In this document: piece after piece, positions 1 to 18,462 of the stretch
Layout: the number at the start of each line of letters is the position of its first letter
Numbering within the stretch: the stretch's first letter is position 1
Source of the DNA: an uncultured Acidobacteriota bacterium
Lineage (GTDB): Bacteria; Acidobacteriota; Thermoanaerobaculia; UBA5066; DATFVB01
NCBI GenBank assembly: GCA_963813155.1
Contig: CAWEYG010000003.1
Location: 1-64,000, forward strand
DNA length: 64,000 nt
Reading direction: 5' to 3'
Position numbers and translations under genes: made by a program
Notes under the pieces: generated by a model
What the model saw: the letters and a program-made list of their open reading frames with translations, nothing else
Databases searched by the model: none
What the model was told of the DNA's origin: nothing

Positions 1-2
1 GC

Positions 3-308
3 GGGAAGGAAAAGACCCTGCTCGGCCTTGCGGGAGCGGGCGACCTGATGCTCACCTGCACGGGATCGCAGTCCCGGAACCGCCGGGTCGGCGAGGAGAT
101 CGGCCGGGGAACTCCGCCGGCCGAGGCGATCGCGAGGACCCCCGAGGTCGCGGAAGGAACGAGGGCCTGCGTGGCGGCGGTCGCGATGGCGGCCGCGTCG
201 AGGGTCGAAATGCCGATCGCGGCGGCGGTTCGGGAGGTCCTCTACGAGGGGGTCGCGCCCCGGGACGCCATTCGCGCACTGATGACGCGCGATCTCCGCA
301 CGGAATGA
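3..308 (+). CDS. gpsA: NAD(P)H-dependent glycerol-3-phosphate dehydrogenase, C-terminal part (5' truncated by window)
   Basis: GLAGAGDLMLTCTGSQSRNRRVG...VAEG...VEMPI motifs of the GpsA C-terminal domain. Confidence 0.9.
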   Translation, partial: GKEKTLLGLAGAGDLMLTCTGSQSRNRRVGEEIGRGTPPAEAIARTPEVAEGTRACVAAVAMAAASRVEMPIAAAVREVLYEGVAPRDAIRALMTRDLRTE

Positions 309-344
309 CGCTTCACGTATAATTCGCCGCAAGAGGTCGAACGC

Positions 345-1148
345 ATGAATCGAGCGATTCCCTGGATCTTCGGAACGGGTGCGGTCCTGGCAATGGGAAT
401 GCGGACCGTTTCCGCGGTTCCGCCGCGGCCGGCGGCCCCTGAATCCCAGCCCGCCGGAGGGCTCACGGCCGACGCGAACCTGCTGGTGGAACGGGATGTC
501 GGAGTCGGCACGCGCATGGGGGGAATCATCGATTCCATCCAGGCGGAGAGGGGAGAATCGGTCAAGAAGGGCCAGCCGCTCGCGACGCTCGACCAACGGG
601 AGTTCGAGCTCGATCGCCGGGCCGCGGAAGCGGCGTTTTCGGCCGCCGACGCGGACTTCAAGCGCTACCAGGAGCTCTTCGGGCAGAAGCTCGCGAGCAA
701 GGCGGAGCTCGAGCAGCGGCGCGCCCATTTCGAACAGGCAAAAGTCGACCTCGAGAAGGCGAAGCTCGTCATCGACCGTTCGGTGATTCGCGCGCCGTTC
801 GACGGGGTCATCGTCGACCGCACGGTCCGCGTCGGGCAAAAGGTGCAGATCTCCGACACGACCCCGCTCTTCAAGATCACGGCGCTCGAGCCCCTTTTCG
901 CCCGCGTTTACCTGAACGAGAGCTGGCTCGATCGGCTGAAAGTGGGCGACCCGGTGTCGGTCGTTTCGTCGAAATTCGCGCGCGCTCGCTCGACGGGCAA
1001 GATTTCCTTTCTCGCGCCCGTGATCGATTCGGCGAGCGGGACGTTCCAGGTCATCGTCACCCTGCCGCGCGATCGCGACAGGATCTTCCGTCCGGGGAGC
1101 TCGGTCAAGATCAACTTCAATCCGCGGCGCACGGCCACTCGAGAGTGA
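345..1148 (+). CDS. Efflux RND/HlyD-type periplasmic adaptor (membrane fusion protein)
   Basis: N-terminal hydrophobic segment; lipoyl halves GESVKKGQPLATLD and IRAPFDGVI; alpha-hairpin; beta-barrel GKISFLAPVIDSASGTF; AGAGG RBS and TATAAT at 318-323. Confidence 0.88.
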   Translation: MNRAIPWIFGTGAVLAMGMRTVSAVPPRPAAPESQPAGGLTADANLLVERDVGVGTRMGGIIDSIQAERGESVKKGQPLATLDQREFELDRRAAEAAFSAADADFKRYQELFGQKLASKAELEQRRAHFEQAKVDLEKAKLVIDRSVIRAPFDGVIVDRTVRVGQKVQISDTTPLFKITALEPLFARVYLNESWLDRLKVGDPVSVVSSKFARARSTGKISFLAPVIDSASGTFQVIVTLPRDRDRIFRPGSSVKINFNPRRTATRE

Positions 1149-1861
1149 TGGCCCCGCGCCGATCTCGCGGTCGAATGCGCTCGACCATGGACTCGGTTTT
1201 TCTTCACGACATGAAGAATCTCGAGTTCCGCCTGAACCTGCTCCTCTCCAACCTCGAGGAGCACTACGGCGATCCCGATTTCAAGCGCAGCGTCGTCGAG
1301 TTGCTCCAATCCTCGCTGCAGAAAGTGGATACGGTCGTCGAGCGCTGGTCGGCGCACAAGGACGCCGTGATGATCAAGGTTCCCGTCGACGTCAACGAGC
1401 TGCTCGCCGACGCGGCGAACCGGGTCCGCGCCCGCGATTCCTACCGGGGCGACGGCGCGCTCGTTCCGCGGGTCGAATTCGCGGCGGAGCCGCTCCCCGC
1501 GGTCTGGGCGGACCCGCACTACCTGAGCGACGCGTTCGCGAGCATTCTTCAGAACGCCCTGGAGGCGGCGGGGCCGGGAGGAGTGGTCTCCGTCGAGAGC
1601 CACCCGGAGGACCGGCGCGGCGCGCCGTGGGTCGCCGTGGACATCGCCGACAACGGTCCCGGCATGAGCCGCGAATTCGTTCGAACCCGCCTCTTTCGGC
1701 CGTTTCAGACATTGAAGAGCTACGGGATCGGCCTCGGTCTCTACACGGCGCGCGAAATCATCCGCTCCCACCGGGGCGCCGTCTCCGTCAAGACCCGGCT
1801 CGGCCAGGGGACGATCGTGACCGTGAGACTGCGCGCGGAGCGGGAGGAAGCCCCCGCTTGA
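1148..1861 (+). CDS. Histidine kinase lacking a sensor domain (PrsK-like H-box)
   Basis: H-box FLHDMKNL, N-box QNALEA, G1 DNGPGM, F-box LFRPFQT, G2 GIGLGL; TGATG overlap with the upstream gene. Confidence 0.85.
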   Translation: MAPRRSRGRMRSTMDSVFLHDMKNLEFRLNLLLSNLEEHYGDPDFKRSVVELLQSSLQKVDTVVERWSAHKDAVMIKVPVDVNELLADAANRVRARDSYRGDGALVPRVEFAAEPLPAVWADPHYLSDAFASILQNALEAAGPGGVVSVESHPEDRRGAPWVAVDIADNGPGMSREFVRTRLFRPFQTLKSYGIGLGLYTAREIIRSHRGAVSVKTRLGQGTIVTVRLRAEREEAPA

Positions 1862-3246
1862 CGGTGGACGGCCGGCTCGCGATCGTCGAGGACGACCGAA
1901 TCCTGCTGGATCAGCTTCGCTGGGCGCTCAAGGGCAAGTTCGACGTCGTCGACGCCGGCAATGCGATCGACGGTGTCACGCTCGTCGACTCCGCTCCCGA
2001 CTGTTTTCTGATCGACCTTCGGCTCCCGCCTTCGAACGAACCGCAGGAAGGCCTCGACCTGCTTCGCGCCATCCGCCGGAAGGCCCCCGGCATCCCGGTC
2101 GTCGTGATGACCGGAGAGAAGGACCGCCGTTTCGCCTTGAAGGCGATCGAGCACGGGGCCTACGACTTCTTTCGAAAGCCGGTCGACCCCTCGGAGCTCG
2201 CCCTGATCCTCGGGCGCGCGCTGGAGCGGCAGCGGATTCTCCAGGAGAACCGGGCGCTCAAGGACGATCTGCTCGGGTCGCAGAGCATGGGAAACCTCGT
2301 GGGCACGAGCCCTCCGATGCGCGCGCTCTTTCGCTCCATCGCGAAGGTCGCGCCGTCGGACGCGACGGTCCTGATCACGGGGGAGAGCGGCACGGGCAAG
2401 GAGCTCGTCGCCCAGGCGATCCACCGCGCGAGCTCGAGGGCCTCCGGGCCCTTCATCGCCGTCAACAGCTCCGCTCTGCCGGAGGCTCTCGCGGAGTCCG
2501 AGCTCTTCGGACACGAAAAAGGGGCGTTTACGGGCGCCGTGGCCGCCCGCCCGGGAAAGTTCGAGCTTGCGCAGAACGGCACGATGTTTCTCGACGAAGT
2601 CGCGACTCTCTCCTCCGCCGTCCAGGCGAAGCTGCTCCGGGTTCTCGAAACGCGCCAGTTCGAGCGCGTGGGAAGCTCTCGAACGATTTCCGCGAACATC
2701 CGGATGCTCGCCGCCACGAACGAAGACCTGGCGCGCCGCGCGCGGGAGGGGACCTTCCGGGAAGACCTGCTCTACCGCCTGAACACGGTCACCCTGTCCA
2801 TCCCGGCGCTTCGGGACCGGGGAGGGGACATCCTCGTTCTTCTCGATTCGTTCGCCGAACGATTCGGCCGACAGTATCGGAAGAAACCGAAGACGTTCTC
2901 CCCGGAAGTGCGGGAGACACTCGACCGGTACCGGTGGCCGGGCAACGTCCGGGAAATGGAGCATCTCGTCGAGATGCTGACGTTGATGGTCGAGGACGAC
3001 GAAGTGCGGCCGGAGCACCTGCCCGGAGGGATCGGAACTGTTCAACCGGATTCGAGCGCCTTCCCGGCCGTCGCCGCCGCGGAACCGTCGCCCGCGACGC
3101 CTCTTCCGGAGATCGTCGCCCGGTTCGAGCGAAGCCTCGTGTCACAGGCGCTCGCTCGGTCGGGCGGCGTCAAGACGCGCGCGGCGAAGGCGCTGGGCAT
3201 CGACCCGGGCCAGCTGAAGTATCTTTGCCGGAAATATCAGCTCTGA
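1858..3246 (+). CDS. Sigma54-dependent response regulator (REC-AAA+-Fis HTH, NtrC/PrsR type)
   Basis: IVEDD and LIDLRLP receiver motifs, Walker A GESGTGKE, GAFTGA, WPGNVRE, C-terminal HTH; TTG start overlaps the kinase stop. Confidence 0.93.
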   Translation: MTVDGRLAIVEDDRILLDQLRWALKGKFDVVDAGNAIDGVTLVDSAPDCFLIDLRLPPSNEPQEGLDLLRAIRRKAPGIPVVVMTGEKDRRFALKAIEHGAYDFFRKPVDPSELALILGRALERQRILQENRALKDDLLGSQSMGNLVGTSPPMRALFRSIAKVAPSDATVLITGESGTGKELVAQAIHRASSRASGPFIAVNSSALPEALAESELFGHEKGAFTGAVAARPGKFELAQNGTMFLDEVATLSSAVQAKLLRVLETRQFERVGSSRTISANIRMLAATNEDLARRAREGTFREDLLYRLNTVTLSIPALRDRGGDILVLLDSFAERFGRQYRKKPKTFSPEVRETLDRYRWPGNVREMEHLVEMLTLMVEDDEVRPEHLPGGIGTVQPDSSAFPAVAAAEPSPATPLPEIVARFERSLVSQALARSGGVKTRAAKALGIDPGQLKYLCRKYQL

Positions 3247-3382
3247 ACGGGCAAAAAGTCGCCGGCCACGTGAAAATCCGGCGGTGAAAAATTAACCATT
3301 CTGTTCGGAAGTGACCCCGTGTTCACTTGTTAAGTGACTGTTTTTTAGTTGTTTGAGTCGATGAAGGGAAGACCAGCGGGGC

Positions 3383-3397
3383 TGGCTCGGACCTTGC
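3383..3397 (+). promoter_or_regulatory. Sigma54 (-24/-12) promoter for the repeat-protein gene
   Basis: TGGCTCG-GACC-TTGC vs consensus TGGCACG-N4-TTGC, directly downstream of a sigma54 activator gene; AT-rich tract upstream; RBS GGAGGA before ATG 3430. Confidence 0.8.
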
Positions 3398-3429
3398 GAA
3401 AGAAGAAGTCCAGCGAAAGGGAGGACAAG

Positions 3430-4172
3430 ATGGGAAACGATGTCAGGATCAAGCTCACGGAACAACAGGCCGCGAAGATCAAGGCCGGAACCGGAAAAGA
3501 AATGGAAGAGATCCGGGTCGGGAAGATCGGCAACGCCCCCGCGCCGAGCGCGTCGCTCTCGGGCAAGCAGGGGTTAACGGGCAAGCCGGGAATGTCGGGG
3601 AAGCCTGGTCTCTCGGGCAAACCGGGACTGTCGGGCAAGCCTGGACTCAGCGGTAAGCCTGGACTGACCGGCAAGCCGGGGATGTCGGGTAAGCCTGGCC
3701 TCAGCGGCAAACCGGGGCTCTCGGGCAAGCCTGGCCTCAGCGGCAAGCCGGGATTGTCGGGCAAGCCTGGACTCTCGGGGAAGCCGGGCCTCTCGGGTAA
3801 ACCGGGGCTGTCGGGCAAGCCTGGACTCAGCGGAAAGCCCGGGCTCTCGGGCAAGCCTGGCCTCAGTGGCAAACCTGGCCTGTCGGGCAAGCCGGGGCTC
3901 AGCGGCAAGCCTGGCCTGTCGGGCAAGCCTGGACTCAGCGGCAAGCCTGGCCTGTCGGGCAAACCTGGCCTCTCGGGAAGCCGGGGCTCAGCGGCAAGCC
4001 TGGCCTGTCGGGCAAACCTGGCCTCTCAGGGAAGCCGGGGCTCTCGGGCAAGCCTGGCCTCAGCGGCAAACCCGGCCTGTCGGGCAAGCCGGGGCTCAGC
4101 GGCAAGCCGGGACTGTCGGGCAAACCTGGCCTCTCCGGGAAGCCGGGGCTCTCGGGCAAGCCTGGACTCTGA
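3430..4172 (+). CDS. Collagen-like (Gly-X-Y) hexapeptide-repeat protein: 42-aa leader + 34 x (L/M)(S/T)GK(P/Q)G; one-base deletion at ~3975-3977
   Basis: Direct translation; adding one G to TCTCGGGAAG continues the repeat to CTC-TGA at 4167-4172 (247 aa), followed by a terminator. Confidence 0.85.
3556..4169 (+). repeat. 18-bp coding tandem repeat, 34 units, synonymously diversified
   Basis: Units such as CTC TCG GGC AAG CCT GGC / CTC AGC GGC AAA CCG GGG with mostly silent differences. Confidence 0.95.
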
Positions 4173-4194
4173 GGAAAACCGTTTATACGGATTG

Positions 4195-4226
4195 GACGCC
4201 CCGCGAAAGCGGGGCGTTTTTCTTTT
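4195..4226 (+). terminator. Rho-independent terminator
   Basis: GACGCCCCGC-GAAA-GCGGGGCGTT followed by TTTCTTTT, between convergent genes. Confidence 0.9.
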
Positions 4227-6422
4227 CTACCAGAAGATTCGCCGGGTCCAGTGGTAGAAGATGTTCCACCACTGAGCGGCATACGCCTTCCGCGGGCCGA
4301 TGAGCTTGACCTCGGCCGTCATGCCGGAAGCGAGATCGCCGTCCCCGTTGTCGAGGTAGGCGACCGCGACGAACCGTTCGGGTCGCTCCGCGATCCGAAG
4401 CGGCTCGTCGGAGCCATGCGACGTCGCGGGCAGGGTCTCCGCGGCCGCGGAGATCGACGAGATCTTCGCGCGAAACTTTCGAAACGGAAAAGCCGGAATG
4501 TGCACGAGGATCGGCTCGTCCACTCGAAGCGAGTGCAGCAGCCGTTCGGTCACCGGGATCTCGATCCGGAGGGTCCGGACGTCGCCGACCGTGAACAGCG
4601 CGGAGCCGACGGCGACGGAAGACCCCAGGAGGTCCTGCGGCCGGTGCGACAGGATCGTTCCCCCGACGGGAGCCCGCACGAGAAGGGCGTCCCGGAGACC
4701 CTCGCTGGCCTTCAGCGCGGAACCCGCGGCGACCGCCCGCGATTCGAATTCCGTGGAGTCGGCCGCCGACGCGGATTCGCGCCCGAGGCTGGCCTGGCCC
4801 TCGAAACCGCTTCGCCGCGCGGTCAGCTCCTGGATCCGGCTCTCCACCGCGCGGCTGGAGAGGCGGGCGAGGGCGTGCCCCGGCCCGACGCTGTCTCCTT
4901 CGCGGACATTCACGGCCTCGACCGTCGAGTCCGCCGGCGCCGACACGCGAACCGAGCGAGAAGGCTTCAGGACGACGGGCACCTCGAAGGTTTCGTGCGG
5001 CCAGGGGATCACGAGCGCCAACAGGAGGACCGCGCCGGCCGCCGCGAGGCGTCTCTGGATTTTGCGAGACATGAGGTACTCCTTCTTGTCGAGATAGAAC
5101 ATCCGGAGGACGTCGGTGAACTTCCGAATCTTCTTGCGGAACATTCGAAACACGACGAGCAGCGTGAGCAGCGGCGTCCATTCGCCGGCGAACATGCCGA
5201 TGATGTGGGCGAAAAGCGCGCTGATCGCGATCATGATCGAGCCCATGTACGCGATCGCCAGAGGGCCGTAGATCAGGAAGACGCGGCGCTTTCTCTTTGA
5301 AAGGACCGGGACTTCGACCGGCAGCCGAAAGATGTACTTCTGGATGAGCATGCCGATGTAGTGGAACGACTGCGGCCGCAGCTCGGGAATCTCGAGCAGG
5401 TCCTCGACCGCGTGGTACCCGTCGGTCGGCGTCATCGGGTTGATGTTGAAGAAGACGGTCGAGATGCCGGTGTACAGCATGCCTTTGTACGCGAAGTCGT
5501 GGATGAACGTGTCGGGATACGTCGCCAGCCACACCGCGGTCGCGGCGACGCAGATGTAGCTTTCGATGTAAATGCCGCCGACGTTGACCCACAGGCGGTG
5601 CCATTTGCTCTCGAAGAGCTCGGAGTCCATCGTGTCGGTGAAATACGCCGGCAGGAAGAAGAACAGGGCGAAACCGATGCTGTGGACCTCTCCGCCGTAC
5701 ATCTTCATCGTGTAGGCGTGGCCCAGCTCGTGGAACATGGCGATGAACGTCACAATCAGGTAGAACTGCAGGACGTCGATGAAGGGCTTGTCGAGAAACG
5801 CGTAGAGCCGGACCGTCTCGGTCCAGATCTTCGAGAAATCCCGCACGAAGACCGCCGCCGTCAGGCCGAACAGCACGAGGCCGACCGAAACGACCTCGGG
5901 GCTCCAGATCCACCGCACGTACTTCACGGTTTTGTTCAGGAACTCGTTGGGGTCCGCGATGGGGAAGAGCATGAGGAAGATGTTGAAAGAGTTCGCCTTT
6001 TCCTCCGCCTTGAGCTTGCGCGCATCTTTCAGGCGCTGCATCAACGCCAGGCCCCGCTCGCTTCCCGACTGCGCGAGAAGGTCCATCTTCTGGAGGTTTT
6101 CTTCGTAGTCGAGCACCAGGGACGTCTCGATGCGGTCGCCGGGGTGCGCCTGGACGTAGGCGTCGCGGATCTCCGCGTGGGTTCGCGTCCCGTCGAACAG
6201 CTCGACGAGGCCCCACTCGGCGTCGGTGAAGGTGTAGATCTTCAGCGAATCGGGGTTCTTGACGACCCATTTCGATTCGCCCATCTGGACGAGGTGCCGG
6301 ATGATGACGTCGGTCCGGAGGGCCGGCTGTTCGCGGGCGGGGCCGAGGCGGTGAGCGAGGGCTTCGGTGACCTCCCCGGTGCGGGTCGTGGAGAGGAGCG
6401 TGGCGCGAGAACTGATGCTCAC
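4227..6422 (-). CDS. PqqD/RRE-like domain + M50 site-2 metallopeptidase + HlyD adaptor fusion
   Basis: N-terminal WVVKNPDSLKIYTFTDAEWGLVELFDGTRTHAEI; FHELGH (HExxH); NINPMTPTDGYH (NPxxxxDG); several TM helices; C-terminal VSAPADSTVEAVNVREGDSV...VRAPVGG adaptor; GTG start overlaps the upstream TGA. Confidence 0.85.
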   Translation of the reverse strand: MSISSRATLLSTTRTGEVTEALAHRLGPAREQPALRTDVIIRHLVQMGESKWVVKNPDSLKIYTFTDAEWGLVELFDGTRTHAEIRDAYVQAHPGDRIETSLVLDYEENLQKMDLLAQSGSERGLALMQRLKDARKLKAEEKANSFNIFLMLFPIADPNEFLNKTVKYVRWIWSPEVVSVGLVLFGLTAAVFVRDFSKIWTETVRLYAFLDKPFIDVLQFYLIVTFIAMFHELGHAYTMKMYGGEVHSIGFALFFFLPAYFTDTMDSELFESKWHRLWVNVGGIYIESYICVAATAVWLATYPDTFIHDFAYKGMLYTGISTVFFNINPMTPTDGYHAVEDLLEIPELRPQSFHYIGMLIQKYIFRLPVEVPVLSKRKRRVFLIYGPLAIAYMGSIMIAISALFAHIIGMFAGEWTPLLTLLVVFRMFRKKIRKFTDVLRMFYLDKKEYLMSRKIQRRLAAAGAVLLLALVIPWPHETFEVPVVLKPSRSVRVSAPADSTVEAVNVREGDSVGPGHALARLSSRAVESRIQELTARRSGFEGQASLGRESASAADSTEFESRAVAAGSALKASEGLRDALLVRAPVGGTILSHRPQDLLGSSVAVGSALFTVGDVRTLRIEIPVTERLLHSLRVDEPILVHIPAFPFRKFRAKISSISAAAETLPATSHGSDEPLRIAERPERFVAVAYLDNGDGDLASGMTAEVKLIGPRKAYAAQWWNIFYHWTRRIFW

Positions 6423-8845
6423 GGCATCAGGGGCCAGAGCTTCGCCCAGAACCACCGGGCGGGCTTGCGGAGCACGGCAAAGCCGAGCCGCCGCGTGCCC
6501 GTCGAGATCTTCGCGTTCCCGAGCATTCCCGGGAGGATCATTCCGCCCCCGTTGTCGAGAACGGCGTCCGCAAGGATGAATCGGTCTTCGCCCTCTTCCC
6601 GGACGACGGGCGAAACCCTCCCGATCTTGCCCCGAAACACCGTGGAGGGATAGGAGTTGAGCTTGACGGCCACGTCCTCGCCTTCGCGCAGGAGGCTCGA
6701 ATCGACCTCGCGAATCGCGACTTCCACCTCCGCGGATCGCGTGTCGGCCAGCACGCAGAGCTCCGCTCCGCTCCCGAGCATCTGTCCGATCCGTTCTTCC
6801 AGGTGCGGGGTGATGAGAACGCCCGTGGCGGGCGCGCGAATTTTCGTCTGGGCGAGATTGCTTTCCGCGACGGCAGCGCGCGCCCGAGCTTCCTCCAGCC
6901 GCGAGGAAGACCGCGCCAGCTCCGAAGTGTCGCCGGACGACTGGTTCTGCGCGACGGAGTTGCGGGCGATGTCGAAGTCCGCGCGGGCCTGAGCGGCGGC
7001 GGCCTGGTAGTCCGCGTCGTCGAGCGTTGCAACGACGTCGCCCTCTTTGACGGAGTCGCCTTCCCGATGGAGAACGGACGCGATCGTTCCCGGAACGGCG
7101 GCCGTGAGCGCCATCCGCCGGCCGGGGAGAACGCGCGCGGTTCCCGTGAGTCGGATGTTCCAGGGCAGCACGACGAGCGCGAGGAGGATCACGGTGCCGA
7201 TCACGAGGCGACGGCGGAGCTTGTACTTCGGGATCGCGGCCAGCTGCCGCTGCTTTTCGAGCAAGGGCTTCCAGAAGCCGGCGAGAGGGACCTGCTGGTA
7301 CAGCTGGGCATTGCGCATCGCAACGGTGGCCTGGTTGACGAGAATTTGAAGGAGATCGCGCCCTTCCTCGTCGAACACCCGCGATTCTGCGCCTTCGAAC
7401 GCGATCGTTCCGAGCTTGCCTTCCTCGTCCTGGAGGATCATCGCGAGGTAGGAGCGCATCCCGCTCGCTTCGAAGAAGACGCGGAACTTCTCCGCAGTCT
7501 CCGCCCGGTCGGTCACGATCTTGCCGTCGGCCTGCTGCGTCACCGACACGTCGTTCCCGCCGTGGTAGACCCATTCGAGAAGCTCGGTCGTCCGGGCGAT
7601 CGAGGGTTCGGACCGGTTGATTTCGTCGACTCCGGAAACGGCCCCCAGGCGGAGCTTTCCCCGCTGGACGACGGCGACGGAGCAGCGGTCGATGTCGACG
7701 AGCGCGGCGCTCGCGTTCGCGACGGTCTTCATCACGCGGTCGAGGTCGAGCGTCGAGGTGATTTCGCGGCTGACGGCGAGGAGCGCATCGAGCTCTTCGA
7801 CCCGGCGCTCGGCGCCGTAGCGCCGCGCGTTGTGCAGGGACCGAACCGCCTGGTGGCCGAGATCGGTCAGGAGAAGGGCGTCGGCCTCCTCGAATCGCGG
7901 GCGTCTCCCTCGCTTGTTGACGATGATCATCACGCCGACCGTTTCCTCGTCTTCGAGGAGCGGGAGCGTCAGAACGGACGAAACCGGGAACGGGCTTTCC
8001 TGTCGCAGGAAATGCTCCGGGGGCAGCTCGTTCTCGAACGTCGCCTCCCGGGCGCCGATGGCGTCGCCCACGACCGAGGCTCCGATGGAATCGGGCGGAT
8101 GGGGGATCTCGTAGTTTTCGTTGATGGCCGTCGCGGCGAGAGAGACTTCGCCCTCGCTTCCCTGGAGCACCCACAGCGAGGCAGCTTCGGCGTTCGCGAA
8201 GTCCACGGCCTTTCGCGCGATGATCGCGGTGAGCTCGTCCCAGTCGAGCGTCGAGCCGAACGCCTTGGAGAGGTCGTACAGGTTCGTCAGGCGCTCGATC
8301 GCGTGCAGCATGCCGGACGTCTTCTTGTCCTGCTTCAGGCTGCGCGCGACCGCCTGGGCCGCGTCGGGGACGAAAGTGGAGAGATTCTCGTGCGCGGAGC
8401 TCAGGTTCGCGTCGCCTTTGCGGAAAAGGACGGCGGCGACACCGATCACTCCCTCGTCGGCGGCCAGGGGAATGGCCAGGCAGCTGCCGAAGTTGCGGGC
8501 GCCGGGCGGAAGCCACGGGTCGTCGGAAACGAGGATCTCCGACGACGTCAGCGAGAAGGACTCGCGGTCGCGAATCAGCCGGCGGACGAAGCCGTCGCTG
8601 CGGGGAACCGATTGCTGGAGGATCCGACCGAGCCCTTCGCCGGTCGCGCCGGTGCAGACGAAAACGGGATGGATCGGGTCTTGCGTCCAGACGAGGGCCG
8701 CGTCGGCTCCGGCGAGCGCCGCGAGCCAGCGTGCCGCCCAGGCGGACGTGTGCGCGAGCGTCTCGCAGGCAAGCAGTTCGGCGAGAGCGGCCGCAAAATC
8801 GCCCTCGGAGGGCGTCGGTGGGGGGCTATCCGGCTCGTCCGACAT
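6419..8845 (-). CDS. Triple-GAF domain + TM + HlyD/MFP adaptor protein
   Basis: Three GAF-like repeats (SCLAIPL, SVLTLPL, SYLAMIL blocks); TM LVIGTVILLALVVLPW; lipoyl/barrel motifs REGDSVKEGDVVATLD, IRAPATG, PGMLGNAKI. Confidence 0.85.
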   Translation of the reverse strand: MSDEPDSPPPTPSEGDFAAALAELLACETLAHTSAWAARWLAALAGADAALVWTQDPIHPVFVCTGATGEGLGRILQQSVPRSDGFVRRLIRDRESFSLTSSEILVSDDPWLPPGARNFGSCLAIPLAADEGVIGVAAVLFRKGDANLSSAHENLSTFVPDAAQAVARSLKQDKKTSGMLHAIERLTNLYDLSKAFGSTLDWDELTAIIARKAVDFANAEAASLWVLQGSEGEVSLAATAINENYEIPHPPDSIGASVVGDAIGAREATFENELPPEHFLRQESPFPVSSVLTLPLLEDEETVGVMIIVNKRGRRPRFEEADALLLTDLGHQAVRSLHNARRYGAERRVEELDALLAVSREITSTLDLDRVMKTVANASAALVDIDRCSVAVVQRGKLRLGAVSGVDEINRSEPSIARTTELLEWVYHGGNDVSVTQQADGKIVTDRAETAEKFRVFFEASGMRSYLAMILQDEEGKLGTIAFEGAESRVFDEEGRDLLQILVNQATVAMRNAQLYQQVPLAGFWKPLLEKQRQLAAIPKYKLRRRLVIGTVILLALVVLPWNIRLTGTARVLPGRRMALTAAVPGTIASVLHREGDSVKEGDVVATLDDADYQAAAAQARADFDIARNSVAQNQSSGDTSELARSSSRLEEARARAAVAESNLAQTKIRAPATGVLITPHLEERIGQMLGSGAELCVLADTRSAEVEVAIREVDSSLLREGEDVAVKLNSYPSTVFRGKIGRVSPVVREEGEDRFILADAVLDNGGGMILPGMLGNAKISTGTRRLGFAVLRKPARWFWAKLWPLMP

Positions 8846-8874
8846 CGATCGTTACTTCCGGCTTCGATGCGGGC

Positions 8875-9210
8875 TCAAAAGCTCGCGACCGCTTCCTCCA
8901 GATCCTGATGAATCTCGAAGACGGAGTCGAGCTGAGTCATCTCCAGGAGCTTCTTCAGATTCGTTCCCGGCGCGAGCAGCTTGGTCTGGCCGCCCTCTTT
9001 CTGCGAATTGGTCAGCGTTCGCACCAGGGCGCCGAGCCCCGTGGAGTCGACGAGGCCGAGCGCCCCGCAGTCGACGAGGAGGTTGACCTTGCCCTCTTCG
9101 AGGAGGCGTGTCACCGAGCGCTTGAAAGAAGCCTCGGACTCGCCGATCACCAGATCTCCCGAGAGAGAGACGATACTCACCCGGCCATCTTCGCGAATTG
9201 AGATTTCCAT
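8875..9210 (-). CDS. STAS-domain anti-sigma factor antagonist
   Basis: LSGDLVIG...LVDSTGLGALV...LEMTQLDSVF, SpoIIAA/RsbV-like, 111 aa. Confidence 0.9.
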   Translation of the reverse strand: MEISIREDGRVSIVSLSGDLVIGESEASFKRSVTRLLEEGKVNLLVDCGALGLVDSTGLGALVRTLTNSQKEGGQTKLLAPGTNLKKLLEMTQLDSVFEIHQDLEEAVASF

Positions 9211-9280
9211 GTTCTGCCGGGATCATCTCAAAAAGAAACCGGAAATGCTAGAGTCGAGACGGGGGGAGGACCAAGCTCAG

Positions 9281-10219
9281 TTGGCGCAAGAGAAACCTGG
9301 GATTCTGGTCACCGGGGGTGCCGGGTTCATCGGAAGCCATGTCGCCCGCGCCTATATCGAGGCGGGGCGCCGGGTCGTCGTCCTCGACAACTTCTCGACC
9401 GGTTCGCCGGGCCGGGTTCCGGCGGGGGCCGCGCTCGTCGAAGGCGACCTGAACGAGCTCGATCTCGAAGCCGTCTTCGCCGATCACGGCATCGGCGTCG
9501 TGAACCATCACGCGGCCCACATCGATCTGCGGGAATCCGTGCGGGACCCCGTCTTCGACGCGCAGGTGAACGTGATCTCGACGCTGAGGCTCCTGGAGTC
9601 CGCCCGCCGCGCCGGGGCGAGAAAAGTGATTTTCGCGTCGACCGGCGGGGCGATCTACGGCGAGCCCCGCGGCGCGAGGGCGGCGGAAGACCATCCCACC
9701 GACCCGCTCTCGCCGTACGGCGTCGCGAAACTGGCGGTCGAGAAATACCTTCACTTCTACCGCACGGAACACGGGTTCGAGACCGTCGTTCTCCGCTACG
9801 CGAACGTCTACGGGCCGGGCCAGAGCGGCAAGGGGGAGGCGGGGGCGGTCGCGATCTTTCTGGAACGGATGCTTGCGGGGCTTCCGGCGGTCATCCACGG
9901 CGACGGCGAGCAGACCCGTGATTTCGTTTTCGTGGGCGACTGCGTCGAGGCGAACCGGCGCGTTCTCGAGGCCGGCCGGAGCGGAGTCTGGAACGTCGGT
10001 ACCGGCGTCGAGACCTCCGTCAACGCGCTGGCCGAGCTGATCCGGACGGCCGCGGGATCCCGGTCACCGATCGAGCACGATGCTCCCGCCCCCGGGGAGC
10101 AGCGGCGAAGCGTGCTGGACGGCCGGAAGCTGCTGGCGGACTTCGGAATCGGAGGCTACGTGCCCCTGAGCGAGGGACTCGCCGCGACGGCGGCGTCTTT
10201 TCGTTCGGCGAGAGGCTGA
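9281..10219 (+). CDS. NAD-dependent epimerase/dehydratase (UDP-glucose 4-epimerase-like)
   Basis: ILVTGGAGFIGSH, STGGAIYG, YGVAK (YxxxK), RYANVYGP; start uncertain (9245 ATG or 9281 TTG). Confidence 0.9.
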   Translation: MAQEKPGILVTGGAGFIGSHVARAYIEAGRRVVVLDNFSTGSPGRVPAGAALVEGDLNELDLEAVFADHGIGVVNHHAAHIDLRESVRDPVFDAQVNVISTLRLLESARRAGARKVIFASTGGAIYGEPRGARAAEDHPTDPLSPYGVAKLAVEKYLHFYRTEHGFETVVLRYANVYGPGQSGKGEAGAVAIFLERMLAGLPAVIHGDGEQTRDFVFVGDCVEANRRVLEAGRSGVWNVGTGVETSVNALAELIRTAAGSRSPIEHDAPAPGEQRRSVLDGRKLLADFGIGGYVPLSEGLAATAASFRSARG

Positions 10220-11673
10220 CTCGGGTCGAACCTCTTCAAGGTCACCCTTTCCGCTTCGGGAAAATCGATCGAACGAGCGTCGCGCGACCATTCCCGAGGA
10301 GCGCGTGCGCTCGGCATTCCGGAGAGGATGAGCCAGAAGGGGCTGCCGGTAGCGGCCTGAGAGACGAGCGGGCCCGTTTGCCCGTCGACGTTCGTGATCG
10401 AGAAGCGGCAGATTCTTCCCCGCGCGAGCCATTCCGGGCCGCAGAGGTAGTAGGCGAGGCACATTTTCGAATTCTCGTTGTCGGTGAAGATCGGAAGAGG
10501 CCGGCGCTCCAGGAACCGCGCGAGGGGCCTCCAGTCGGCGCGGCCTTCCCGGAAATAGAGGCCGATCGAGGCGGCCTCGTAGACGAGCAGAAGCGCGAGA
10601 GCCGCGGCCGCCGGGGCCCGCCAGCGGCGGCGCGACAGGAGGTCCGCAAGCCCGACGCCCGCGAGAAGGTGCAGGGCGACGGCCGCGGGCAGGAAGTAGC
10701 GCGAGCCGAAATGACCGGGCGACCGATGGCGGAGCAATTCGATCGCGATCAAGCCCGCTCCGGCCCAGCCCGCGAGAAACCGGAGGCCACGCCGCCTCAG
10801 CGCGACGGCGGCCCCGATTGCCACGAGCGCCAGGAACAGCCCGAAAGCCGCCTGGTAGAGCCGGGGAGGGCCGAAGGAAAAGCCTCCGTACTTGTAGGAA
10901 AGCGTCAGCTCCGAGAGAAGGTGGCCAACCCGGGAAAGCGTCAGGGCCGTTCCACCGCCCGAAGACAGGGAGCGCACGCCGCGGGCGAAAACAGGAATCC
11001 ACGGCGCGTAGCCCGCGGCGAGCCCGAGGACCAGCGCCGGGCTCCATTTCCAGAAACGGAGGGCGGCATCGCGCCGGTCCGCGTCCGGGGAGCTCGCGTC
11101 CTCGAGCGCCAGAGCCGCGCCCGCGACCGCGAGGGAAACCGCGGCGAGCGAGAGCGTGTACGCGGTCGCGAGTGCGAGCAGGAAGAAGAGGGCCGCGCGC
11201 CGTCCCGTCGGGCGGCCCATCCACAGCTCGAGCGCGCAAAGCGAAGCGAGAATGAGAAAGATCCCGAGCGAGTAAGGCCGCAGCTCCTGCGAGTACCGGA
11301 CGTGGACGGGGGAGAGCGCCAGAAAACCCATGCCCGCGACGGCCGGCCAGGGCCCCGCGCGCCGCCGGAGCAGCCATCCGGCGGCCGCGACCGCGCCGAT
11401 TCCCCAGACGGCGGCCGGAATCCTGCGATCGGCGTCGGAGGGCCTGAGCGGTTCGAGGCTCCTCAGGACGACGTAGTCGAGCGGCGGGTGAACGGCATCC
11501 TGGCGCAGCTGAGAAAAGAGAAAGCTCCAGGAGCCGTGCACGGAAAACGACTCGAAGACTTCGTCGAGCCAGTAGGACGATCGCCCGAGCCCACTCAGGC
11601 GAACGGCCGCCGAAACGGAGAGGATCAGGAGCGCGGCAATGAGTCCGGCGCGCTTGGCGAGATGCGATTCGAT
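10156..11673 (-). CDS. GT-C fold membrane glycosyltransferase (family 39/PMT-like)
   Basis: SYWLDE, DAVHPPLDY, YSQELRPYSL motifs and many TM helices; start uncertain. Confidence 0.75.
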   Translation of the reverse strand: MESHLAKRAGLIAALLILSVSAAVRLSGLGRSSYWLDEVFESFSVHGSWSFLFSQLRQDAVHPPLDYVVLRSLEPLRPSDADRRIPAAVWGIGAVAAAGWLLRRRAGPWPAVAGMGFLALSPVHVRYSQELRPYSLGIFLILASLCALELWMGRPTGRRAALFFLLALATAYTLSLAAVSLAVAGAALALEDASSPDADRRDAALRFWKWSPALVLGLAAGYAPWIPVFARGVRSLSSGGGTALTLSRVGHLLSELTLSYKYGGFSFGPPRLYQAAFGLFLALVAIGAAVALRRRGLRFLAGWAGAGLIAIELLRHRSPGHFGSRYFLPAAVALHLLAGVGLADLLSRRRWRAPAAAALALLLVYEAASIGLYFREGRADWRPLARFLERRPLPIFTDNENSKMCLAYYLCGPEWLARGRICRFSITNVDGQTGPLVSQAATGSPFWLILSGMPSARAPREWSRDARSIDFPEAERVTLKRFDPSQPLAERKDAAVAASPSLRGT

Positions 11674-11715
11674 CCGGCGAGGATAACAGAGCGGGCGCGT
11701 CGCGCCGGAACCCGG

Positions 11716-11731
11716 TGGCCCCGCCTTTGCT
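11716..11731 (+). promoter_or_regulatory. Putative sigma54 promoter (TopIB)
   Basis: TGGCCCC-GCCT-TTGCT, GG-N10-GC. Confidence 0.5.
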
Positions 11732-11744
11732 CTTGGGAGAAACC

Positions 11745-12752
11745 GTGACCAGGGTCGAAACGCTTCTCGCAATCGGAATTCGAAGGGTCGCGGCAGGCTC
11801 GGGACGATTTCGGTACGAGAATGCCGACGGCTCGGCTCCGTCGTCCGAGGACGAGGTTCGCGCCGGACGCCTCGGTTTACCGCCCGCCTGGTCCGACGTT
11901 CGGATCGACCCGTCGGCGACGGCGAGCCTGCAGGCGATCGGAAGGGACGCCGCGGGCCGCTGGCAATACCGTTACCACCATACCCGGGTCGCGAGCCGGG
12001 AGCGGGAGAAGGCCGCGAGGTTGAGAAAATTCGCGGCTCGGTTTCCCGCCCTGAGGGCAGCCGTCGCGAAAGACTTGCGCCGGCCGGGCCTGCCGCGGGA
12101 AAAGGTCCTCGCCGCGATGACGCGGATCCTCGCGACGCGGTATCTGCGGCCGGGAAGCCGCGCCTACGCCGTGGAAAACGAAAGTTATGGAATCACGACT
12201 CTTCACAAGAGGCACGTTTCGTTTCGAAACGGAGGCGCAGAGCTGCGATTTCGCGGAAAAGCCGGCAAACAGCGGCGTGTCGAGACCGACGACCGCGGCG
12301 CCGTCGCCGTTCTGCGGCGCTGCGCGAGGCTGCCCGGCCGCGCCTTCTTTCAATGGCGCGATCCCGACGGGTCGGTCGCCGCGGTCCACCGTCGGCAGCT
12401 CAACGCCTACATCCGGGAGGGCATGGGCGAAGGTTTTTCCGCGAAGGATTTTCGCACATGGGCGGGAACGTTGATTTGCGCCAACGAGCTCGCCCGGTCG
12501 TCCGGCGGCGGCGTCGATTCGAAGACCGGGCGGCGGAGACAAATCGTCGCGGCCGTCGCCGAGACCGCGCGGCGGCTCGGGAACACTCCCGCCGTGTGCC
12601 GAAGCTCTTACATCTCGCCTCGCGTGATCTCGAGCTTCGAACGAGGCGTGACGCTAAGGGTGACCGTTCCGTCGGTCGAGCGGCTCGGGCGCCGCGTCGC
12701 ACCCCACCCGATCGAGCGGGAGCTCGGGAAATTGCTCGCGGAGGGCGGCTAA
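11745..12752 (+). CDS. Bacterial DNA topoisomerase IB
   Basis: LPPAWSDVRI, GRDAAGRWQYRYH, LRPGS, FRGKAG, KDFRTWAGT, LGNTPAVCRSSYI. Confidence 0.92.
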   Translation: MTRVETLLAIGIRRVAAGSGRFRYENADGSAPSSEDEVRAGRLGLPPAWSDVRIDPSATASLQAIGRDAAGRWQYRYHHTRVASREREKAARLRKFAARFPALRAAVAKDLRRPGLPREKVLAAMTRILATRYLRPGSRAYAVENESYGITTLHKRHVSFRNGGAELRFRGKAGKQRRVETDDRGAVAVLRRCARLPGRAFFQWRDPDGSVAAVHRRQLNAYIREGMGEGFSAKDFRTWAGTLICANELARSSGGGVDSKTGRRRQIVAAVAETARRLGNTPAVCRSSYISPRVISSFERGVTLRVTVPSVERLGRRVAPHPIERELGKLLAEGG

Positions 12753-12797
12753 TGGTATTCGAATGGGGGCAACGCCCCAACCGGTTGGGGCATTTTC

Positions 12798-12813
12798 TGG
12801 CACGGTTCTGGCT
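12798..12813 (+). promoter_or_regulatory. Putative sigma54 promoter (ku)
   Basis: TGGCACG-GTTC-TGGCT, preceded by an 18-bp perfect palindrome at 12774-12791. Confidence 0.55.
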
Positions 12814-12828
12814 GCTATCCTCCCCATT

Positions 12829-13635
12829 ATGAGAACGATCTGGAAAGGCCACTTGAGCTTCGGTTTGATCTCGGTGCCCGTCGGACTCTACGCGGCTCTG
12901 GAGGCGTCCGAGCGCGTGTCGTTCCGGCTTCTTCACCGAAAAGACCTGTCGCCCATCGAGTACAAGAAATACTGCGCGCGCGAGGACGTCGAAGTTTCCA
13001 ACGACGAAATCGTGAAGGGCTACGAGGTCGAAAAGAACAAGTTTGCCGTCGTCGAAAAGGAAGAGCTCGAAAAGATGCAGGAAGAAGCGGGAGGCGGTTC
13101 CGACGATCACACGATCGAAGTGCTGGAATTCGTCGAGCTCGCATCCATCAATCCGCTCTCGTTCGAGAAGCCGTACTACCTCGCTCCCGAAAAAGGCGGC
13201 GACAAGCCTTACGCCGTTCTGCGCGATGCCCTTCTCGAAGAGAGGAAAGTGGGGATCGTGCGGATCACCATTCGCTCCCGTCCCCAGCTGGGCGTCCTGA
13301 TTCCCTCTTCGAACGCGCTCGCCGTCGAAGTGATTCGCCCGTTCGAGGAGCTTCGCGACACCGCGGAGCTCAAGCTGCCCGAGTCGGCGAAGAAGTCGGC
13401 GGAAATCAAAATGGCGAAAATGCTGATCGATCAGCTCACGACGGAGTGGGATCCCCAGGAGCACCCCGACGAGTACCGGGAGACGCTCACGAAGCTGCTG
13501 TCCTCGAAGCGCAAGCACACGGTTGCGATCTCGCGCGCCGACACCAACGTCGTCGACCTGATGGACGCGCTCAAGAAGAGCGTCGCGCGCACGAAAGGGA
13601 AGCCGAAGAAGGCCGCCAAGGCGGGGGCGGCGTAG
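12829..13635 (+). CDS. ku: Non-homologous end-joining protein Ku
   Basis: MRTIWKGHLSFGLISVPVGLY, IVKGYE, FEKPYYLAP, VVDLMDALKKS, basic tail. Confidence 0.96.
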   Translation: MRTIWKGHLSFGLISVPVGLYAALEASERVSFRLLHRKDLSPIEYKKYCAREDVEVSNDEIVKGYEVEKNKFAVVEKEELEKMQEEAGGGSDDHTIEVLEFVELASINPLSFEKPYYLAPEKGGDKPYAVLRDALLEERKVGIVRITIRSRPQLGVLIPSSNALAVEVIRPFEELRDTAELKLPESAKKSAEIKMAKMLIDQLTTEWDPQEHPDEYRETLTKLLSSKRKHTVAISRADTNVVDLMDALKKSVARTKGKPKKAAKAGAA

Positions 13636-13641
13636 CCGTCC

Positions 13642-15645: not shown

Positions 15646-15713
15646 TCGATGAACTTCACTGAGCGATCAATCACTGCAAGGATAGGGCCAAAGCGGCAAT
15701 GGGGCGGACTGCC

Positions 15714-15729
15714 TGGCATGAAAGCTGCT
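15714..15729 (+). promoter_or_regulatory. Putative sigma54 promoter
   Basis: TGGCATG-AAAG-CTGCT upstream of RBS AGGAGG and ATG 15755. Confidence 0.65.
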
Positions 15730-15754
15730 TTTCCAGGACCGTCAGGAGGAGCTC

Positions 15755-16156
15755 ATGAAACGTCTGCAAATCGGAACTCTCATCTCGGTGGTCTCGCTCG
15801 TCGGGGGAATCGCGCTCGCGCGGCAATCGGATTCAATGGCCTCGGGATCGACGGCGACGGAGTCGAAGTCGACGACGAAGACCAAGAGCCCGTCGGGAAC
15901 GACGAAGACGAAATCCCACTCCGCAACGGGAACCGTCAAGGAATTCGAATCGGGAAAGAAGCTCGTCGTCACGACCGCGAACAAGAAGAACCGGTCGTGG
16001 GATCTCGACGACAAAGACACGACCTACGACGTGGACTCCACGATCGCTGTCGGGTCCAAAGTCTCGGTCCTGGAAAAGACCGATGCGGACGGCAAGAAGT
16101 CGGTTTCCGTCTCGCCGTATGTCGCCAAGAAGAGCAAGAGCAAGAAAAAGTCTTAG
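15755..16156 (+). CDS. Small secreted Lys/Thr/Ser-rich protein (possible small beta-barrel)
   Basis: Signal peptide ending ALA, strong RBS, GTVKEFESGK...VGSKVSV pattern, downstream terminator. Confidence 0.75.
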   Translation: MKRLQIGTLISVVSLVGGIALARQSDSMASGSTATESKSTTKTKSPSGTTKTKSHSATGTVKEFESGKKLVVTTANKKNRSWDLDDKDTTYDVDSTIAVGSKVSVLEKTDADGKKSVSVSPYVAKKSKSKKKS

Positions 16157-16175
16157 CCCGCGAAGAGCGCGTGAC

Positions 16176-16210
16176 AACGGGCCCGACCCACGTCGGGTCC
16201 GTTTGTTTTC
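16176..16210 (+). terminator. Rho-independent terminator
   Basis: AACGGGCCCGAC-CCAC-GTCGGGTCCGTT then TGTTTTC. Confidence 0.8.
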
Positions 16211-16257
16211 CGCCGGCTTGCCGCCGGCCGTTCGAATGCCGGCGTTAAGATGGTTTC

Positions 16258-18073: not shown

Positions 18074-18083
18074 GCCCGGGTCG

Positions 18084-18398
18084 CTACTGCTTGACTTGCA
18101 ACTCGTTGTTGACCCGAACGACGCCATCGACGCCCCGCGCGACTTCGCCGGCCAACCGCCTCTCGTCCGCGTTGTGAACCTCGCCGGCGAGCGTCACCAC
18201 GCCGTTCGTCGAATTGACCTCGACATTCGTCAGCGTGGAGAGTCGGACGTCGGCCGCGAGCTTCGCCTTCACGGACGCCTTGATGCCGGCGTCGTCAACC
18301 TGACGCCCCGCCGACGTCGTCGTCTTGCACGCCGCCAGTCCGAGAAGCAGAACCAGGGCGATCGCGCCCGCCGCAGAAACCGAGAGAATCTTTCGCAT
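18084..18398 (-). CDS. BON-domain lipoprotein (OsmY-like)
   Basis: Lipobox LAAC, DDAGIKASVKAKL, VTLAGEV, VDGVVRVNNEL. Confidence 0.9.
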   Translation of the reverse strand: MRKILSVSAAGAIALVLLLGLAACKTTTSAGRQVDDAGIKASVKAKLAADVRLSTLTNVEVNSTNGVVTLAGEVHNADERRLAGEVARGVDGVVRVNNELQVKQ

Positions 18399-18446
18399 CA
18401 CTTCTCCTTCTTTCGGGACGCATTCGAGTCCCGGTCCTTCTGTGAA

Positions 18447-18462
18447 TGCACGGCATGTGCCA
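18447..18462 (-). promoter_or_regulatory. Putative sigma54 promoter (BON gene)
   Basis: Minus strand TGGCACA-TGCC-GTGCA. Confidence 0.6.

Follow-up and report, generated by a model that had tools for sequence, protein, structure and literature searches.

A Conserved Acidobacteriota Cassette with Leader-Bearing Repeat Peptides, a Sigma54-Type Switch and Three HlyD-Family Adaptors

Genes of the cassette and their conservation

The first 64 kb of contig CAWEYG010000003.1 (C3 below), from assembly GCA_963813155.1 of an uncultured Acidobacteriota bacterium, carry between positions 345 and 9210 a cassette of seven genes, which encode three HlyD-family adaptors (two of them as fusion proteins), a histidine kinase, a sigma54 activator, a STAS-domain protein and a small protein consisting of a leader and a tandem-repeat tail. 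This stretch of 64,000 nucleotides (nt), referred to as the window, belongs to a genome of 3.81 Mb in 23 contigs (completeness 90.8%, contamination 3.76%), and the nearest relatives of its proteins lie in metagenome-assembled genomes (MAGs) named Thermoanaerobaculia or Acidobacteriota. The G+C content of ~66% gives rise to many long spurious open reading frames (ORFs), and genes were therefore accepted only with family support. Base 1 of the window is the contig end, so that sequence upstream of it is not visible in C3. The features of the cassette are the following.

345–1148, plus strand: membrane fusion protein (MFP)/HlyD-family periplasmic adaptor, 267 amino acids (aa); HlyD_D23 6.6e-22, HlyD_3 8.1e-22
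1145–1861, plus strand: short soluble histidine kinase, 238 aa; HATPase_c 2.5e-18, H-box FLHDMKN; its start overlaps the MFP stop
~1858–3246 (exact start uncertain), plus strand: sigma54-dependent response regulator; Sigma54_activat 1.4e-67, Response_reg 3e-18, HTH_8 3.2e-09
3383–3398, plus strand: predicted sigma54-type −24/−12 promoter TGGCTCGGACCTTGCG, 31 nt before the ATG at 3430
3430–4172, plus strand: leader+repeat gene; ATG at 3430, ribosome-binding site GGGAGG at 3419–3424, leader of ~38 aa followed by (GKPGLS)n
4194–4229, plus strand: intrinsic-terminator-like hairpin (4194–4219, 11 pairs, 8 of them G-C) and T-run, between the convergent units
4227–6422, minus strand: fusion of an RRE-like (RRE, recognition element of RiPPs, peptides made by the ribosome and modified after translation) domain, M50 peptidase, transmembrane (TM) helix and HlyD, 731 aa; Pfam Peptidase_M50 and HlyD; its start overlaps the stop of the upstream gene
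6419–8845, minus strand: fusion of two to three GAF domains, TM segment and HlyD, 808 aa; GAF_2 3.1e-25, GAF 8e-23, GAF_3 1.2e-20, HlyD_D23 3.7e-16
8875–9210, minus strand: STAS-domain protein of the anti-sigma-antagonist type, 111 aa; STAS 1.3e-17, TIGR00377 62.5 bits (above the cut-off of 53.45)

The minus-strand operon, of which the STAS gene is the first, is convergent to the plus-strand unit; stops and starts overlap, and the repeat gene sits between both units. The STAS protein carries a DSTGL motif, retained as DS[ST]GL in 71 of 71 orthologs. Both the plain MFP, which has a weakly hydrophobic N-terminus, and the GAF-HlyD fusion pass the cut-off of 94.9 bits set for TIGR01730, a model of RND/ABC adaptors (ABC, ATP-binding cassette; RND, resistance-nodulation-division), with 170.6 and 99.2 bits, respectively. 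The latter has a single TM segment at residues ~543–567, with the GAF domains cytoplasmic and the adaptor periplasmic. No sensor domain, TM segment or hydrophobic segment was detected in the kinase, whose H-box is kept in 59 of 62 orthologs and whose top NCBIfam match, PrsK TIGR02916, covers model positions 480–678 only (139.3 bits, cut-off 300). The activator consists of a receiver, an AAA+ sigma54 interaction domain and a Fis-type helix-turn-helix, and scores 430 bits with PrsR TIGR02915, under the cut-off of 502.6.

Conservation of the cassette was surveyed with alignment A1, built from 20 M50-HlyD homologs and run against a single genome from each species; the scan yielded 162 pattern matches, 100 of them confirmed, from which the best 80 loci (L007–L086) were kept. 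Where the flank is sufficient (at least 4.8 kb beyond and at least 3 kb before M50-HlyD), no locus lacks any of the seven genes (59 of 59); the gap between M50-HlyD and the activator contains a leader gene in every locus that extends 1 kb or more past M50-HlyD (68 of 68). Gene order, as determined by tblastn with the window proteins, is constant: STAS, GAF-HlyD and M50-HlyD, a gap of 520–1350 bp, then activator, kinase and MFP on the opposite strand. Neighbours outside the cassette vary between loci. The 59/59 co-occurrence rules out that these genes were thrown together by chance; judged by gene content and order, the cassette is one system, conserved in many soil Acidobacteriota far beyond chance. 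An initial annotation of this DNA, made from the letters alone, had placed the plain MFP, the kinase, the sigma54 activator, the leader+repeat gene and the convergent STAS, GAF-HlyD and M50-HlyD genes where Pfam and NCBIfam also find them, and had taken them for a single system. It had further proposed to test whether a leader gene with a low-complexity tail and a sigma54 regulator accompany the homologs of both fusion proteins, and they do.

All but one of the 80 loci come from genomes labelled Acidobacteriota or Thermoanaerobaculia. The exception, L063 (JBLMYG010000459.1), is a full Acidobacteriota-type cassette in a MAG labelled Acidithiobacillales, a placement probably due to misbinning and not to transfer.

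The fusion protein extends well beyond this set. A profile search of 1.84 billion representatives returned 4514 matches at E ≤1e-30, of which the best 150 are mostly full-length (~685–820 aa) and the rest shorter fragments, and 54 of 401 sampled Acidobacteriota genomes match at 1e-30 (the unpublished genomes G024 and G152 included). In eleven more distant loci (25–31% identity), the genes for GAF-HlyD, MFP and M50-HlyD are adjacent and the sigma54 activator is convergent to them; nine of the distant loci have a single GAF-HlyD–MFP–M50-HlyD operon, while the MFP stands beside kinase and activator in L146, L148 and L149, as in the window. The gap of the distant loci holds repeat genes (units AGGGM, NSPLS, SPAKRV, SKSALA) or Lys-rich peptides of 35–60 aa. 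A scan with alignment A4, made of distant representatives, added 80 metagenome loci (G+C 0.53–0.64), a second clade in which the operon order is GAF-HlyD–MFP–M50-HlyD wherever the contig is long enough.

The leader peptides and their promoters

The predicted promoter of the leader+repeat gene has the form TGGCAC-N5-TTGC, with its GG and GC elements 10 bases apart. In the window alone such a motif is not significant (13 matches versus 9.75 expected); its significance comes from conservation across the leader genes, not from the window count. Of 71 leader genes, 70 have TGG[CT]-N7-TTGC in the 130 nt that precede them, usually at a distance of 28–33 nt from the ATG, and in the 71st the spacing is one base longer, while only 83 of 20000 random 130-nt windows of the loci (0.4%) contain the motif. 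It was found upstream of none of 70 STAS genes and of one of 63 MFP genes. Because the motif is absent before STAS and nearly absent before the MFP, the cargo gene is the only predicted sigma54 target in the cassette. In the second clade, TGG[CT]-N8-TGC precedes 50 of 55 peptide genes, compared with a null of 2.4%. The repeat gene had been credited in the initial annotation with its own sigma54 promoter and terminator, and both are borne out as predicted elements, the former by this conservation and the latter by the terminator-like hairpin and T-run at 4194–4229.

The STAS gene is preceded by an element of another kind. In L009–L032 and other loci, 10–30 nt before the STAS ATG, a conserved TTTT(C/T)GACATAAT box stands directly ahead of the start codon and resembles a promoter of the −10 type followed by a very short leader.

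The first 38 residues of the cargo proteins, with the consensus MANEVRIKLTDEQKAKIKEATGKDMPEIRVGSLGxNPA, show a mean column identity of 75% (alignment A3), whereas the cognate enzymes are only ~45–50% identical. Five leaders searched against Pfam and NCBIfam matched no family at E values up to 10. The tail behind the leader is built from a unit that is specific to the locus: GKPGLS, AARNVQ, AGRAAGKSI, ARKATRISAKVA, NTPRA, KAMKAQ, PRAGA and ATRAQ are examples, as are KPLA, KSPSL, AAPRV, SARQ, GDQEALRA and others, with periods of 4–24. Tails are rich in A (26%), R (13%) and S (11%), followed by G (8%), K (8%), T (7%) and P (5%), and with the exception of four related loci they carry a net positive charge. 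No TM segment, Sec signal, trimerisation domain, anchor or PEP-CTERM family match was found in the substrate.

The repeats also carry a signature of translation. In 39 genes with clear periodicity, differences between successive units fall on codon positions 1, 2 and 3 of the leader frame 447, 302 and 1287 times, respectively, and codon changes between units are synonymous in 1107 cases versus non-synonymous in 432. This excess of third-position and synonymous changes indicates that the tails are translated and under selection. From these counts and the differing units, the repeat unit is taken to be held by selection within a gene yet swapped between species.

A second leader family, M[SA][IV][QE]KKSLIS...KKA, is present in 49 of 57 metagenome loci with room for the gene and is followed by units such as PAVR, TLAKG, VAATR, SKVALG and KMH. 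A third leader type, MAKKTLKKSKK..., is only 23–27 aa long. Tails of the second clade contain 0.5% Asp+Glu and 21% Lys+Arg. Two to three tandem peptide genes, each with its own sigma54-type motif and with a shared leader and different tails, occur in L139, L145, L161, L190, L192, L224, L227 and L231. L139 also has two peptides with a common C-terminal half (...RDAPKIAGGGLDDGSLS.GGGKP) and different N-termini.

In the window itself, the repeat array spans 3578–4170 with a period of 18 bp and 33 copies, as delimited by Tandem Repeats Finder. At ~3977 the repeat register is short by one base, and three-frame translation shows that the assembled ORF exits to the +1 frame there and ends at 4257, past the terminator, while the GKPGLS frame itself carries on to the TGA at 4170–4172. 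An intact paralog lies on the minus strand of the same contig (C3:~354.7–355.3 kb); it has the same leader, its own TGGCGCGGCCCTTGCG and ribosome-binding site, and the end ...GKPGL*. In addition, run X2 contains a contig, belonging to a related population, that differs at 24 other places over 171 bases and carries an extra C behind 3977. The intact paralog and the X2 contig indicate that the intact frame is the natural state, and that the frameshift of the window either arose in assembly or is a lesion peculiar to this lineage. The paralog is far from any cassette, among unrelated neighbours (an amino-acid permease, an SDR and HPPK); from its orphan position it follows that two or more cargo genes may share one machine.

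A second syntenic copy of the region is found at C4:116416–135225 (L004, L005), corresponding to window positions 1–20566 with 82.8% identity in the cassette and 91% in the flanks. The C4 genes for GAF-HlyD, M50-HlyD, activator, kinase and STAS are each broken over two to four frames and the repeat array is scrambled; gpsA and an epimerase gene in the flanks are intact, and C3 begins exactly where the C3/C4 similarity starts. The C4 copy may be a cassette in decay, from a strain that was co-assembled, or else the outcome of a poor consensus. Upstream of it lie an ABC-F-like gene, CinA and GpsA; the ORF of 1054 aa there, which resembled an RND pump by its length, proved to be CinA.

The initial annotation saw in the window gene a collagen-like polymer that a hetero-adaptor channel exports as a fibre or matrix component; on this view the product would be triple-helical. 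(GKPGLS)n is a perfect G-X-Y repeat that matches Pfam Collagen at 4.5e-25 and several Scl-like NCBIfam models, and the same unit is used by the paralog and the two nearest relatives. The matches are driven by composition, and all of the NCBIfam scores are far under their cut-offs (NF038329, 84.6 versus 325; NF046116, 46.1 versus 500; NF038330, 45.9 versus 400). GKPGLS was found only in the genome of the window and in its two closest relatives, L007 and L008, while the units of the remaining 60-odd orthologous loci are non-G-X-Y, unrelated and of periods from 4 to 24. With neither trimerisation domain nor Sec signal nor anchor in the substrate, we regard a collagen-like product as very improbable, and it does not stand as the defining feature of the system.

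The M50-HlyD fusion and the proposed route of export

Four parts were distinguished in the M50-HlyD fusion, partly with the aid of an AlphaFold2 (AF2) model.

Residues ~30–115 (6078–6335), minus strand: RRE-like beta3-alpha3 domain, from the model
Residues ~170–450 (5073–5915), minus strand: M50 membrane domain, with HELGH at 231–235 (5718–5732) and NxxPxxxxDG at 326–335
Residues 455–473 (453–471 in the AF2 model), minus strand: TM helix
Residues 475–731 (4230–5000), minus strand: MacA/AcrA-like adaptor with a two-helix hairpin (H524–549/H553–578), from the model

The peptidase part matches PF02163 with 35.1 bits, above the cut-off of 27.2; this family also matches all 20 members of the alignment, and residues H231, E232, H235, N326, N328, P329, D334 and G335 are invariant in the 20 sequences. 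The motifs HExxH and NxxPxxxxDG of peptidase family M50 are intact. A sequence search for solved relatives recovered the adaptor part only and no solved M50 structure. The fold of the C-terminal adaptor matches MacA, AcrA, MexA and ZneB, with a best E value of 5e-14. In the AF2 model of the whole fusion (mean predicted local distance difference test score, pLDDT, 72), the membrane domain is helical and a beta3-alpha3 domain spans residues 40–112. The N-terminal domain modelled alone reaches a pLDDT of ~80 over residues 30–115, with elements E40–46, E49–55, E62–66, H67–73, H82–92 and H100–112. Its top PDB folds are RREs, namely TbiB1 with its leader, PqqD, CteB, TruD, ThcOx, LynD, PbtF and a lasso B1 protein; target TM-scores reach 0.6–0.7, and the TM-score against TbiB1 with leader is 0.71. 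The modelled domain thus shows the RRE/PqqD-like fold of a three-stranded sheet and three helices, which lends support to the assignment of such a domain in the initial annotation. A single complex prediction, of the leader (alignment A3) with the N-terminal domain (alignment A2), gave a score of 0.00, from which no inference was drawn. Over residues 38–428, the closest NCBIfam models are the daptide HExxH protease NF041824 (119.2 bits, cut-off 300) and YydH/LiaK NF058609 (43.9 bits, cut-off 225).

The cassette brings three adaptors and no ABC or RND transporter. Window positions 1–20000 contain no match to ABC_tran, ACR_tran or OEP, a search that left the major facilitator superfamily aside. 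Elsewhere, the genome has 16 OEP domain matches that correspond to eight TolC-like genes, all outside the locus, the nearest at C3:86679; 65 ABC_tran matches, those within the window being confined to 56057–57418; and 13 ACR_tran matches, none of them in the window. When 46 ABC, 8 RND and 8 OEP segments of the genome were used as tblastn queries against the 80 A1 loci, linked genes were found for ABC in three loci (1.8–5.4 kb away; two of them two-domain, ABC-F-like), for RND in one and for OEP in none. The initial annotation had seen no pump or TolC in the locus and had expected TolC to be encoded elsewhere in the genome, and on both counts the searches agree with it; loci with a pump are, as just described, rare among the homologs.

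Another account of these adaptors is a conventional tripartite pump of which one part is missing from the locus: M50-HlyD would be leader peptidase and adaptor at once, and three adaptors would bridge an unlinked ABC transporter (MacB-like, or like a peptidase-containing ABC transporter, PCAT), or another transporter, to TolC. The MacA/AcrA-like adaptor folds, the score of the plain MFP with TIGR01730 and the 65 ABC_tran matches and several RND pumps elsewhere in the genome all fit such a pump, and known M50 RiPP systems (YydH, daptide) do export through separate ABC transporters. We nevertheless consider it unlikely. Transporter linkage is nearly absent from 80 + 80 loci of two clades, which is unusual for dedicated peptide exporters, and we know of no precedent for three different adaptors serving one pump. 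Moreover, the linked ATPase of a published sister module is a SecA_DEAD protein and not an ABC transporter (PMC4452313).

A SecA-like ATPase is scarcely better represented. The only SecA_DEAD (PF07517) match in the genome, which is 90.8% complete, is the housekeeping SecA at C1:49101, and tblastn detected a linked SecA in one of 95 Acidobacteriota loci and in none of the 80 metagenome loci. In the one positive locus, L152 (G194:C28, 3633–7359), a SecA_DEAD-like gene with 45% identity to the SecA of the genome over 468 aa adjoins M50-HlyD and the MFP; no sigma54 activator was detected there.

The data presented above lead us to propose a model whereby the kinase and the sigma54 activator would switch on a small gene whose product has a ~38-residue leader and a species-specific, mostly cationic repeat tail without a Sec signal. 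The RRE-like domain of M50-HlyD would bind the leader in the cytoplasm, and the intramembrane zinc protease would take it off. The periplasmic adaptor domains of all three proteins (plain MFP, GAF-HlyD and M50-HlyD) would form an envelope-spanning assembly that docks to an unlinked TolC-like channel and lets the tail pass outward, while the cytoplasmic GAF domains and the STAS protein would gate or regulate the machine. Leader binding, leader cleavage, export, the mixed adaptor assembly and the use of TolC are steps that we infer from domain content and conservation. Trimming and export of these peptides is probably what the cassette does, by a route that has yet to be studied; the mechanism as a whole, a self-contained sigma54-controlled system for processing and exporting leader-bearing peptides, is one towards which we lean slightly. 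Export could be driven by an unlinked transporter, or the M50 ring itself could be the conduit. As to the product, our guess is that the exported cationic repeats are antimicrobial or matrix/polyanion-binding peptides.

A bolder version of this proposal, a novel type of envelope-spanning machine for peptide secretion, dispenses with ABC, RND and SecA proteins altogether. A ring of RRE-M50-adaptor proteins together with the GAF- and plain adaptors would recognise the leader, cut it and conduct the peptide to TolC, and the cargo would be a widespread and hitherto overlooked group of sigma54-induced, hypervariable cationic repeat peptides, unmodified and with a species-specific unit, secreted by soil Acidobacteriota as antimicrobial or polyanion-binding matrix agents. 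We hold this extended form to be doubtful.

The same genes could also be read as a signalling device rather than an exporter. Regulated proteolysis of the leader protein would be the task of M50, a feedback circuit would be made up of GAF, STAS and the kinase-activator pair, the HlyD domains would sense or anchor in the periplasm, and the cationic tail would act inside the cell, for instance on nucleic acids in the manner of AKP-rich histone-like tails. M50/site-2 protease (S2P) enzymes are classically signalling enzymes, the phosphorylatable DS[ST]GL motif of STAS is invariably kept (71/71), the kinase lacks a sensor domain of its own and no energy source for export is linked; Ala/Lys/Arg/Pro-rich repeats, we presume, resemble DNA-binding tails. 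The substrate, however, has no TM segment, unlike the substrates of S2P, and it is difficult to account for three co-conserved adaptor domains with hairpins of the TolC-docking type unless there is a conduit. In addition, a leader that is conserved in front of a hypervariable remainder is the pattern of an exported or processed peptide, and a purely intracellular role appears quite improbable to us.

Several observations weigh against processing and export by the cassette. Regarding recognition and cleavage, the E values of the RRE fold matches are weak (0.02–0.2), the Pfam PqqD model weakly matches just 3 of 20 members (best E 0.0026), and the scores with the RiPP protease families are under their cut-offs. 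Regarding transport, neither an ATPase nor a proton-driven transporter is linked in the A1 loci (ABC 3/80, RND 1/80, OEP 0/80) and SecA in this genome is the housekeeping one; to our knowledge, M50/S2P enzymes do not move peptides across membranes, and export of a polycation would run against the membrane potential. The substrate gene is frameshifted in this very window, and the C4 cassette is broken in most genes, which suggests that the system is dispensable at least in some lineages. Finally, no modification enzyme, immunity gene or pointer to the role of the product was found in the locus.

Relation to known systems and neighbouring genes

The core of the cassette has a published counterpart. 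Kamneva, Poudel and Ward (PLoS One, 2015; PMC4452313) described GAF-HlyD, M50 and HlyD proteins beside a secondary SecA_DEAD protein in bacteria of the Planctomycetes-Verrucomicrobia-Chlamydiae (PVC) group, Proteobacteria, Nitrospirae and Chlorobi. They remarked that no ABC transporter accompanies these proteins; in their proposal the ATPase is SecA_DEAD and the pore possibly M50, and the role of the module was called ‘completely unknown’. The likeness covers the three proteins and their fusions, the lack of ABC in the locus and an OEP usually encoded elsewhere. Unlike that module, the present cassette has no secondary SecA_DEAD protein (0/80 + 0/80 loci of two clades), and it adds the sigma54 activator, the kinase, STAS and the leader+repeat gene, none of which is mentioned in the main-text passages compared (PMC4452313). 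L152 is an Acidobacteriota locus with the SecA_DEAD flavour of the module. A literature search found nothing on the cassette, its leader peptides or its sigma54 control, and this paper was the sole relevant one. The substrate family and the sigma54 control thus appear new and the three-adaptor/M50 core module already known. The initial annotation, which had called the system undescribed, is overtaken on this point, since both the GAF-HlyD, M50-HlyD and HlyD module and the idea of M50 in place of an ABC pore were already in print (PMC4452313). Its interpretation is partly supported: it holds in outline, with a single system, a cargo that bears a leader and the lack of a linked pump, and errs in emphasis, collagen being incidental and the core module already described.

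An orphan module that has been on record since 2015 without a known cargo, regulator or energy source thereby gains a candidate cargo family, in which the leaders are of no fewer than three types and the different repeat units number in the hundreds. Induction, too, has a clear switch in the cassette, namely sigma54 together with its dedicated activator, and a SecA-like ATPase is evidently not obligatory for the module. Whether an M50-adaptor fusion moves a peptide across the envelope, and what drives it, becomes a question testable with seven genes and one peptide. The cargo itself consists of short-period repeat peptides with almost no acidic residues, under purifying selection within the gene and different between species, in abundant and mostly uncultured soil bacteria.

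In CvaA-CvaB-TolC and PCAT export, the N-terminal leader of an unmodified peptide is cut at export, and an MFP adaptor and a TolC-type channel take part. Our model for the cassette shares leader cleavage, the MFP adaptor and the TolC-type channel with the export of microcins and class II bacteriocins. It differs in that an M50 metalloprotease with an RRE-like domain stands in place of a C39 cysteine protease, ABC domains are lacking, there are three adaptors and not one, and the leader is not of a recognisable double-glycine type. As in type I secretion and tripartite efflux, an adaptor with lipoyl, beta-barrel and alpha-hairpin domains is present; the linked energised transporter of those systems is not. 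The daptide HExxH and YydH-LiaK proteins are likewise HExxH membrane proteases, and the daptide model also spans the N-terminal domain, but here modification enzymes are missing, the protease is fused to a periplasmic adaptor and the substrates are long tandem repeats.

The best matches of the kinase and activator are PrsK and PrsR of the PEP-CTERM/exosortase system, in which secreted low-complexity proteins are also under sigma54 control. Both proteins are nonetheless under the model cut-offs, the kinase is without the membrane sensor part and the substrate has no PEP-CTERM match. With the collagen-like proteins Scl1, Scl2 and Lcl, the window gene has the G-X-Y pattern in common; a Sec signal, a trimerisation domain and an LPXTG anchor are absent, and the units of its orthologs are non-collagen.

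Several genes outside the cassette recur near it. DndB-like, LemA, M48, EAL and hydrolase genes and an MbnB/DUF2063 pair were considered as members and set aside, as each recurs in subsets of loci only. The last of these, a subclade feature, is an MbnB/TglH-like (DUF692) gene with a DUF2063 gene, found ~2.6 kb left of STAS in ~20 of 80 loci (for example L024:2419–4968). DUF692 and DUF2063 are what we take to be the enzyme pair of bufferin-type RiPP clusters, and here the pair is probably an unrelated neighbour. In the window, beyond the STAS gene, positions 10245–11637 (ORF 10156–11772, minus strand) encode a multi-pass membrane protein of 538 aa with a weak match to the Agl23/flippase-associated model TIGR03663 (41 bits, under the cut-off); its presence in the window and absence from the C4 copy point to an indel between both variants. 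At 11715–12752 on the plus strand lies a gene for a bacterial type IB topoisomerase (Topoisom_I 5.8e-26, Top1B_N_bact 2.2e-12).

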